Shown here piece after piece: positions 24,502 to 25,265 of a stretch of 64,000 bases of DNA (position 1 is the first letter of the stretch; each line of letters starts with the position of its first letter). The stretch lies in NCBI GenBank assembly GCA_964016885.1, contig OZ024740.1:52390001-52454000 (forward strand). Direction: 5' to 3'. The notes below the pieces were generated by a model. It searched no databases. It saw nothing but the letters and a program-made list of their open reading frames with translations, and was not told the origin of the DNA. The DNA is from Eledone cirrhosa (Eukaryota). Position numbers and translations under genes: made by a program.

Positions 24502-25265
24502 TGGCCCTTTAAAGCGATGAAATGCCTGGGACGGTTGGAGGGTCACTGATGAAGGAACTCACTTTTTCATATGCCCCACCATGTGCAACGCGCAGCCATC
24601 ATTATTATCATATTTACACATAATTTTTCTTCTGCTGTCACTGTCTGTTCGTTCTTTGTACCTTTTAACCTTTCTCGTTCTTTGTACCTTTTACCCTTTC
24701 TAGCAGTCTCTCTCTCTGTTAGCCTCCTCCTCAACTTTCACTCACTCATTCTCTGTCACTACCTCTCCTCCTCCTCTTTCCTCCTCCTCCTTCAAGTTTC
24801 ACCTGTGTGTAATTCTTTTCTCGCGTGGTCTTGAACAAGCTGGTATGGAAATTTTTCTCTCTCTCTCTCTCTCTCTTTCGTCTGCGACTTCACAAAACGT
24901 ATGTTTAGCGAATTCGTAGACCAGACCCCTTTATCTTCTTCTTCTTCTTCTTCTTCTTCTTCTTCTTCTTCTTCTTCTTCTTCTTCTTCTCTCTTCCCCC
25001 CCCCCCCCCCGTTAGACTTGTGCGAAATTCTTTCCTTGCTCACATTTCAACCAGGTTTGATGGTCTTTTGTCTCTTGTTCACGATTTCACCGAGTTTATA
25101 TTCATAGAGATCTGGGACTTGTCTATTTCTTCTCACTTTCCGTTGCTTAAACCTTTTTGTTTGTTACCCTGGCGTCCCCTTTGTTACGTGTCCCAACGAC
25201 TTTTTTTAGGCCGTTGTTCGCCACCAACCCTGAGGCATATGGCCCTTAAAGCGATGAAATGCCTG
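24502..25265 (+). mobile_element. Non-autonomous retrozyme-like element R2 (738-bp unit plus about 26-nt terminal redundancy)
   Basis: TGGCCCTT(T)AAAGCGATGAAATGCCTG occurs at both ends. The body is non-coding and pyrimidine-rich ((CT)n, (TTC)n), with (TA)n on both sides. The rearranged HHR is split between the two ends. Confidence 0.78.

Follow-up and report, generated by a model that had tools for sequence, protein, structure and literature searches.

Introduction

Type-SGC ribozymes are a non-circular permutation of the hammerhead that is known from metatranscriptomes and has been validated by cleavage assays; the accessible text of Eckert et al. 2023 (PMC10085705) reports none in the genomes of known organisms, RefSeq 85 included, and leaves the origin of the S-G-C hammerheads open. 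A natural hammerhead with a stem II of a single base pair can be fast, given the support of a pseudoknot, according to the available part of PMC3088659. Among Penelope-like elements (PLEs), those with hammerheads and those lacking them alike show partial tandems, tails of 30–40 bp and inverted copies at the 5' end, and elements of the Hydra clade insert nearly all in (TA)n, as stated in the accessible sections of PMC8557442. For a PLE of the anole, the portion of PMC11167929 at hand describes reverse transcription that starts inside the element's own RNA, which explains the genomic tail, and a hammerhead that is dispensable in vitro, with no reads ending at the cut.

The DNA analyzed here, a 64,000-nucleotide stretch from Eledone cirrhosa (the window), is AT-rich animal DNA dense in (TA)n tracts and PLEs. 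It contains three repeat elements, R1, R2, and R3, each with a predicted hammerhead whose blocks stand in S-G-C order. It is this order, read from the sequence of an animal genome, that is new.

Results

R2 and its sister copies

The R2 element consists of a 738-nt unit and a terminal redundancy of 26 nt and sits between two TA tracts, inside (TA)n (Table 1). As the original prediction had proposed, it begins at TGGCCC, the base after the predicted AUA cut, and ends about 26 nt past the same site; TGGCCC stands at 24502 and again at 25240, and the 3' end at 25265 lies 26 nt beyond the second predicted cut. The 5' junction is less sharp than the 2–3 nt of ambiguity that had been claimed: the 4 nt ATAT are common to the TA tract and the cut site, so that the boundary may lie anywhere in about 24499–24503. 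ATAT is present four times in the R2 unit. Since the 5' end of R2 has no stem III partner, R2 itself would not release unit-length RNA. The longest ATG frames of the R1, R2, and R3 elements span 87, 107, and 158 codons.

Table 1. Positions of R2, its parts, and related features in the window
Feature	Position	Strand	Basis or detail
R2 element, 738-nt unit + 26-nt redundancy	24502..25265	+	sequence
R2 5' half-ribozyme	24502..24552	+	block and stem anatomy; compensatory variants in reads
R2 stem I strand	24502-24507	+	followed by UUAA linker
R2 G block	24519-24522 (GAAA), 24523-24527 (stem III strand)	+	
R2 stem III extension strand	24533-24538	+	
R2 stem I partner, then CUGAUGA	24540-24545, 24546-24552	+	
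R2 region 3' of CUGAUGA	24553..24589	+	1 bp of canonical stem II; predicted hairpin 24568-24585
Motif CCAT-NN-GCA	24579-24589	+	common to R2 and R3
R2 second conserved pyrimidine-rich block	24692..24756	+	81% over 48 nt with R3; very deep in reads
R2 3' half-ribozyme	25224..25265	+	S block and second G block, without C block
R2 S block	25224-25229 (extension), 25233-25237 (stem III strand)	+	AUA triplet; predicted cut after 25239
Left (TA)n tract	24075..24501	.	ATAT microhomology with cut site
Right (TA)n tract	25266..25806	.	blunt 3' junction
R2b, duplicate of R2	37758..38524	+	same flanks as R2; 96.6% identity, differences mostly homopolymer or microsatellite
R3, 2.3 units (561, 550)	41211..42480	+	three complete S-G-C cores; starts -48, ends +111
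R1, 753-nt unit + 129 nt (1.17 units)	659..1540	-	two complete S-G-C cores; ends +89
Inverted piece at R1 5' end	1538..1637	+	from sibling, 80% like R1; C block; ends in TA
PLE-A, Hydra-clade-like Penelope element	19789..24078	+	frame 20066-22153; type I hammerheads at 19853, 23887

The description of R1 and R3 as terminally redundant, non-coding, pyrimidine-rich, and inserted in (TA)n was accurate, at 1.17 and 2.3 units; R1–R3 are 70–72% pyrimidine on the ribozyme strand and TA tracts flank each of them. Unlike R2, both R1 and R3 start upstream of the cut and contain complete cores. In R3 cuts are predicted after 41258, 41819, and 42369, the units are near-identical (apart from indels of single bases or in repeat length, units 1 and 2 differ by one substitution; units 2 and 3 differ by one in 159 nt), and the 5' junction has no ATAT-type microhomology. 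In R1 cuts are predicted after 1501 and 748 at a GUC site without ATAT, and the element starts at about -37 relative to the cut with an inverted piece ahead of it, the inversion point being the palindrome AAGGCCTT (1530–1537). This piece is 80% identical to R1, as compared with 94–100% for the PLE palindromes in the window, and it likely reflects a switch to a sibling RNA.

R2b is preceded by an N gap of 200 letters, after which about 2.5 kb (the PLE-A end, a TA tract, R2, and a TA tract; 36521–39790) repeats 23485–25800. With the same flanks as R2 and its position behind the gap, R2b is the same insertion seen twice, through duplication or assembly redundancy, and an independent second insertion is ruled out on these grounds. 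Several extra homopolymer letters present in R2 are missing from this copy, which provides the cleaner register.

A hammerhead core in S-G-C order

In R1–R3 the hammerhead blocks are ordered S-G-C (cleavage block, GAAA block, CUGAUGA block) around an intact core (UH, GAAA, CUGAnGA), which is complete in R1 and R3 and split over the two ends in R2. The split had been foreseen together with the claim that only a circle or a tandem holds a whole ribozyme; that wording is too strong, because a linear R2 transcript has all three blocks, in C...S-G order and 690 nt apart. A pairing descriptor returned five matches in the window (three in R3 and two in R1, R2 being split) as against none in 100 shuffles, and a sequence pattern for the G and C blocks returned seven as against none in 100 shuffles, both being post hoc and composed after the sequences had been seen.

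Ungapped alignment of R2b and R3 shows stem I (6 bp), stem III (5 bp), and the stem III extension (6 bp) paired in 34 of 34 cells, compared with 8–14 of 34 in controls slid by 1–2 positions. Eight of the 17 pairs differ between these two related sequences, on which the whole count rests, and all eight stay paired, six of them through two-sided changes (four in stems I and III, two in the extension). R2b and R3 agree at all 18 positions of the core and the UUAA linker, versus 20 of 34 for the stem letters. The reads show the same behavior: in the RAD run X21, 485 of 491 plus-mate reads carry G24524A, 490 of 494 carry G24540A and G24542A, and all three are accompanied by complementary changes in the upstream loose ends, the variants being unphased. 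No change is seen in GAAA or CUGAUGA among the variants listed (40 of 52). As three helices covary, the fold is under selection, and it is pairing in the rearranged hammerhead core that is selected. Block order and conserved pairing thus support the proposal of a rearranged hammerhead in repeats of 550–750 nt, and the core of R1–R3 is built like a type-SGC hammerhead, for which cleavage is predicted.

A descriptor search found no type I hammerhead in R1–R3, type I matches being confined to PLE ends, and the type I reading of R2 was rejected on the same grounds. Rfam gave no match at gathering score over the whole window; the best 150 of 601 hits by E-value were nearly all microRNA models on TA tracts, with no hammerhead among them. 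A GC-rich tandem repeat of 173 bp at 45216–46142, purine-rich on the plus strand, has a CUGAUGA at 45184 and no match to a hammerhead descriptor. In metagenome and viral contigs the specific R2/R3 core pattern had no matches. A loose pattern gave at least 120 metagenome loci (about 270 estimated) and 14 viral loci, and 1 of 134 passed thresholds of at least 4 for stem I and at least 3 for stem III; this locus, L067, was rejected as a relative, since it is no better than chance and occurs once in the stretch examined.

Stem II and predicted activity

R2 and R3 have a stem II of 1 bp, and the direct copies of R1 have one of 2 bp; a stem II of 5 bp would form only between the R1 G block and the sibling inverted piece (predicted −6.8 kcal/mol). 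No conserved stem I–II helix was found, the candidates differing among R2, R3, and the (unphased) read variants. With a stem II of 1–2 bp and no such helix, the ribozyme may be slow or dead, and R1–R3 are not filed as a proven member of type SGC. In the S-G-C order, stems I and III alone would anchor both core strands. Circular folds of whole units, computed with ViennaRNA (pseudoknots being beyond what it draws), gave stem III a pair probability of only about 0.3–0.7 and did not predict stem I; their energies are modestly below those of mononucleotide shuffles (z of −2.6 to −3.8), with 36–42% of positions paired.

The motif CCATGTGCAAC downstream of CUGAUGA had been noted as common to R2 and R3; it is present in both, as part of a predicted hairpin, and reads differ at its two middle letters. 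At 24583 the G is replaced by T in all aligned contigs and reads covering the position, and loose ends carry other letters. A model in which CCATGTGCAAC serves the G block as stem II from a displaced position (−4.5 and −4.1 kcal/mol predicted) is weakened, because the middle letters vary without a listed change in the partner. The stem III extension connects to the stem I partner through 1 nt, yet in a hammerhead a wide distance separates the two helix ends, so that the extension would have to open or a swapped dimer to form; a similar geometric puzzle is remarked on in the accessible text of Eckert et al. 2023 (PMC10085705).

Junctions and copy number in reads

In run X1 the summed contig depth is 4–6 × 10^4 over the ribozyme versus 500–1200 at 24640–24678, a measure that is not copy number and from which we roughly infer a high-copy family of thousands of copies for the R1–R3 type of repeat. 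The pyrimidine-rich block at 24692–24756 is deeper than the ribozyme, with a summed depth of up to 1.1 × 10^5 in X1. Organism B (run X4) has nothing over the ribozyme and two contigs elsewhere; the block occurs there as well. Its function may be to bind protein or to act as a promoter, or it may form part of a larger family.

Reads were compared with the 5' half of R2, so that the 5' ends counted are those from the cut onward. About 655 X21 reads cover the ribozyme, and at least 587 of them (383 + 204, with consensus agreement of 0.82 and 0.94) continue into an upstream S block. Eighteen reads with five start points enter from TA at a junction near +5, none of them at +1. The TA-entering contigs of X1 sum to a depth of 100, with 45 near +5, 8 near +2, and about 47 like the window (+1), and these three junction classes are attainable by thousands of randomly truncated copies. 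Since restriction sites fix where RAD reads fall, contigs of small size may have been dropped, and not every loose end is listed, these figures are not a genome-wide tally; the R2-type build with its +1 start is a minority. No loose end at +26 is seen among those listed (there are 48 further ones). None of the runs recorded as RNA has an element share above 0.04, and contigs of X5, a run of unspecified type, span the cut site, where DNA, uncut RNA, and circles are not distinguishable from contigs.

Neighboring Penelope-like elements

The 3' end of PLE-A adjoins the TA tract to the left of R2; PLE-A represents a candidate helper class. The best named relative of its frame comes from Argonauta hians, at 40% identity. 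Three PLE frames are Hydra-like by motif (DKT in two of three, CxCX5C in two of three, RWR in one of three) and two others carry the CX2-5CxxC linker of other clades; Pfam names none of PLE-A to PLE-C and gives only sub-cutoff RVT_1 or GIY-YIG for the other two frames, the clade calls being motif-based. Six or more large PLE insertions with inverted repeats, from several clades, lie in TA tracts of the window (6740–13117, 18864–23991, 29248–34654, 47845–51163, 52394–55228, and 57313–61696). Minimal type I hammerheads lie at PLE ends at 19853, 23887, 37122, and 55028 on the plus strand and at 18967, 56046, and 52591 on the minus strand, and one more, at 13822 on the minus strand, was spotted by eye; none of the PLE-end hammerheads is at the Rfam gathering score. 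A frame fragment at 18090–18504 resembles what we take to be the end of an RTE-type LINE reverse transcriptase.

The insertions of R1–R3 bear PLE-type marks, namely a (TA)n site, a partial tandem, and a 3' tail, with a 5' inversion in R1 only, where the inverted piece resembles the PLE palindromes of the window. The 3' ends lie at +26 (R2), +89 (R1), +111 (R3), about +132 (inverted piece), and +112 (an X1 loose end) past the cut, and for the neighboring PLEs the distance from their own type I cuts to the 3' end is about +50 to +220. BLAST within the window found no similarity between R1–R3 and PLE ends. A match of 15 nt, from CUGAUGA on, between the inverted piece (1546–1560) and the PLE-A type I hammerhead (19853–19867) offers a slight hint that the S-G-C core may descend from a PLE hammerhead.

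A search of autonomous reverse-transcribing elements for the rearranged core had been suggested as a route to the helper; the window PLEs returned type I hammerheads instead, and the S-G-C core was not found among them. The proposed mobilization of a class of 550–750 nt by TA-targeting PLEs is supported as far as the insertion marks and the neighboring TA-targeting PLEs go. We consider it highly probable that these repeats, with their core in S-G-C order, travel as passengers of PLEs, and the helper class is likely a Penelope-like element.

Discussion

The form of the template is inferred, and the reading we favor, with belief and doubt about evenly balanced, is that R2 goes back to a linear transcript of several units in which a single cut had been made, at the first ribozyme; its insertion into (TA)n was likely the work of a Penelope-like element's endonuclease and reverse transcriptase. 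The transcribed parent would resemble R1 or R3 in having two or more ribozyme sites; its first ribozyme would cleave after AUA as predicted and leave a 5' end at +1, and the next ribozyme would stay uncut. A PLE protein would nick (TA)n and reverse transcription would begin at an internal position of the RNA, 26 nt beyond the second site, in the way described for the tails of PLEs in the available part of PMC11167929. Copying would reach the 5' end of the RNA, and the copy would be joined to the target through ATAT, a microhomology that is observed and may have this role. Uncut templates would give R1- and R3-like copies with starts upstream of the cut. The ends of R2 at +1 and +26 and the position of all seen 3' ends shortly past the cut speak for this reading, and the rarity of the +1 start in reads (0 of 18 RAD entries from TA) speaks against it. 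Circles may also exist and could explain R3; R2 needs none.

The ends of R2 had been taken as the footprint of a circular template, a claim that found no support: only one of three independent elements in the window starts at the cut, and most reads run through it. RNA closed covalently into a circle offers no terminus at the cut; copying that stops there points either to a linear 5' end made by self-cleavage or to chance. The end at +26 resembles the tail of PLEs, which start reverse transcription internally, and a unit-plus-tail redundancy is a general trait of PLEs, also of those without ribozymes. Were monomers nevertheless ligated and copied from +26 for one round, with the enzyme displacing its own cDNA for 26 nt, the seamless junction of R2 would be accounted for, and the near-identical units of R3 would fit rolling copying; moreover, animal retrozymes accumulate as circles that are proposed templates of reverse transcription, according to the accessible part of PMC7229834. 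We nonetheless strongly doubt that R2 arose in this way, as a +1 end would be missing from such a circle and the site could hardly refold once hybridized to cDNA. A tandem parent likewise yields near-identical units, and the circular folds lie only modestly below shuffles. Both the +1 stop and the unit-plus-26 length would be predicted from one RNA if stems I and III, by joining the ends of a cleaved monomer, kept it in the shape of a nicked ring, and the enzyme, starting at +26, jumped the nick, copied the whole unit and stopped at the 5' end on its second pass. The R1 inverted piece, 80% like R1, suggests that the reverse transcriptase is likely able to switch templates, but the jump would have to be seamless onto a cyclic-phosphate end, and we regard the nicked ring with the same strong doubt.

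Chance is an unlikely explanation that still deserves weight. Ordinary truncation, resolved at an ATAT microhomology that coincides with the cut site by accident, with the ribozyme idle on the template and perhaps weak or inactive, would place the start of R2 at the cut in about 5 of 738 cases without bias and in 1 of 4 with a bias for ATAT, which spans the cut and is one of four in the unit. R1 and R3 start elsewhere, junctions at +2 and +5 exist, most reads run through the cut, and stem II has 1 bp, all of which would suit this reading. ATAT is not required for insertion, however, since the 5' junction of R3 is without such microhomology, and covariation in three helices shows that the fold is under selection.

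With somewhat more doubt than belief, we propose that R1–R3 give a non-circularly permuted hammerhead its first known home in a genome. On this view the S-G-C ribozyme, with its 1-bp stem II, would be active, would be present in likely thousands of copies in a cephalopod genome, would have arisen by rearrangement from a PLE type I hammerhead, and would make monomers or circles of 550–750 nt that PLEs re-insert. A literature search outside subscription journals, Repbase, and Dfam found no report of an S-G-C hammerhead in an animal genome, and screens on type I descriptors, as in the available part of the Li et al. 2026 preprint, would miss the R1–R3 family. A multi-family, high-copy DNA version near type I-bearing PLEs is a fossil record for tracing the rearrangement, and its natural variants test whether the S-G-C topology makes stem II dispensable. 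Tallies of ends would test the assumption that retrozymes come from circles as opposed to linear, once-cut RNA.

Compared with non-LTR retrozymes, as described in the accessible sections of PMC7229834, R1–R3 have the same head-to-tail, non-coding units with one hammerhead per unit, are likewise dispersed (their copy number being rough), and share a proposed mobilization by PLEs; their unit lengths fall within the range of 51–972 bp given in the available text of Li et al. Non-LTR retrozymes are defined there by type I hammerheads and were shown to form circles, whereas the order in R1–R3 is S-G-C and no type I hammerhead marks them as retrozymes of this kind. With the pLTR and tail of PLEs, in the portions of PMC8557442 and PMC11167929 at hand, they share the (TA)n target, the partial tandem, the short 3' extension, the 5' inverted copy, and a hammerhead in the repeated end; they differ in having no coding frame and no detectable homology to the pLTRs of the window, and in that the PLE hammerheads here are type I. 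With type-SGC HRIMA-1 and its variants (PMC10085705, accessible text), R1–R3 share the S-G-C order, the intact core, a stem I of 5–6 bp, a short linker, and a stem III of 4–5 bp. The R1 G block paired with the sibling inverted piece matches the geometry of HRIMA-1, with an extra base after CUGAUGA and a stem II of 5 bp. HRIMA-1 itself combines its 5-bp stem II with a stem I–II helix, whereas R2 and R3 have 1 bp and a covarying stem III extension of 6 bp. The HRIMA type is known from metatranscriptomes, and R1–R3 are a high-copy repeat in the DNA of an animal.
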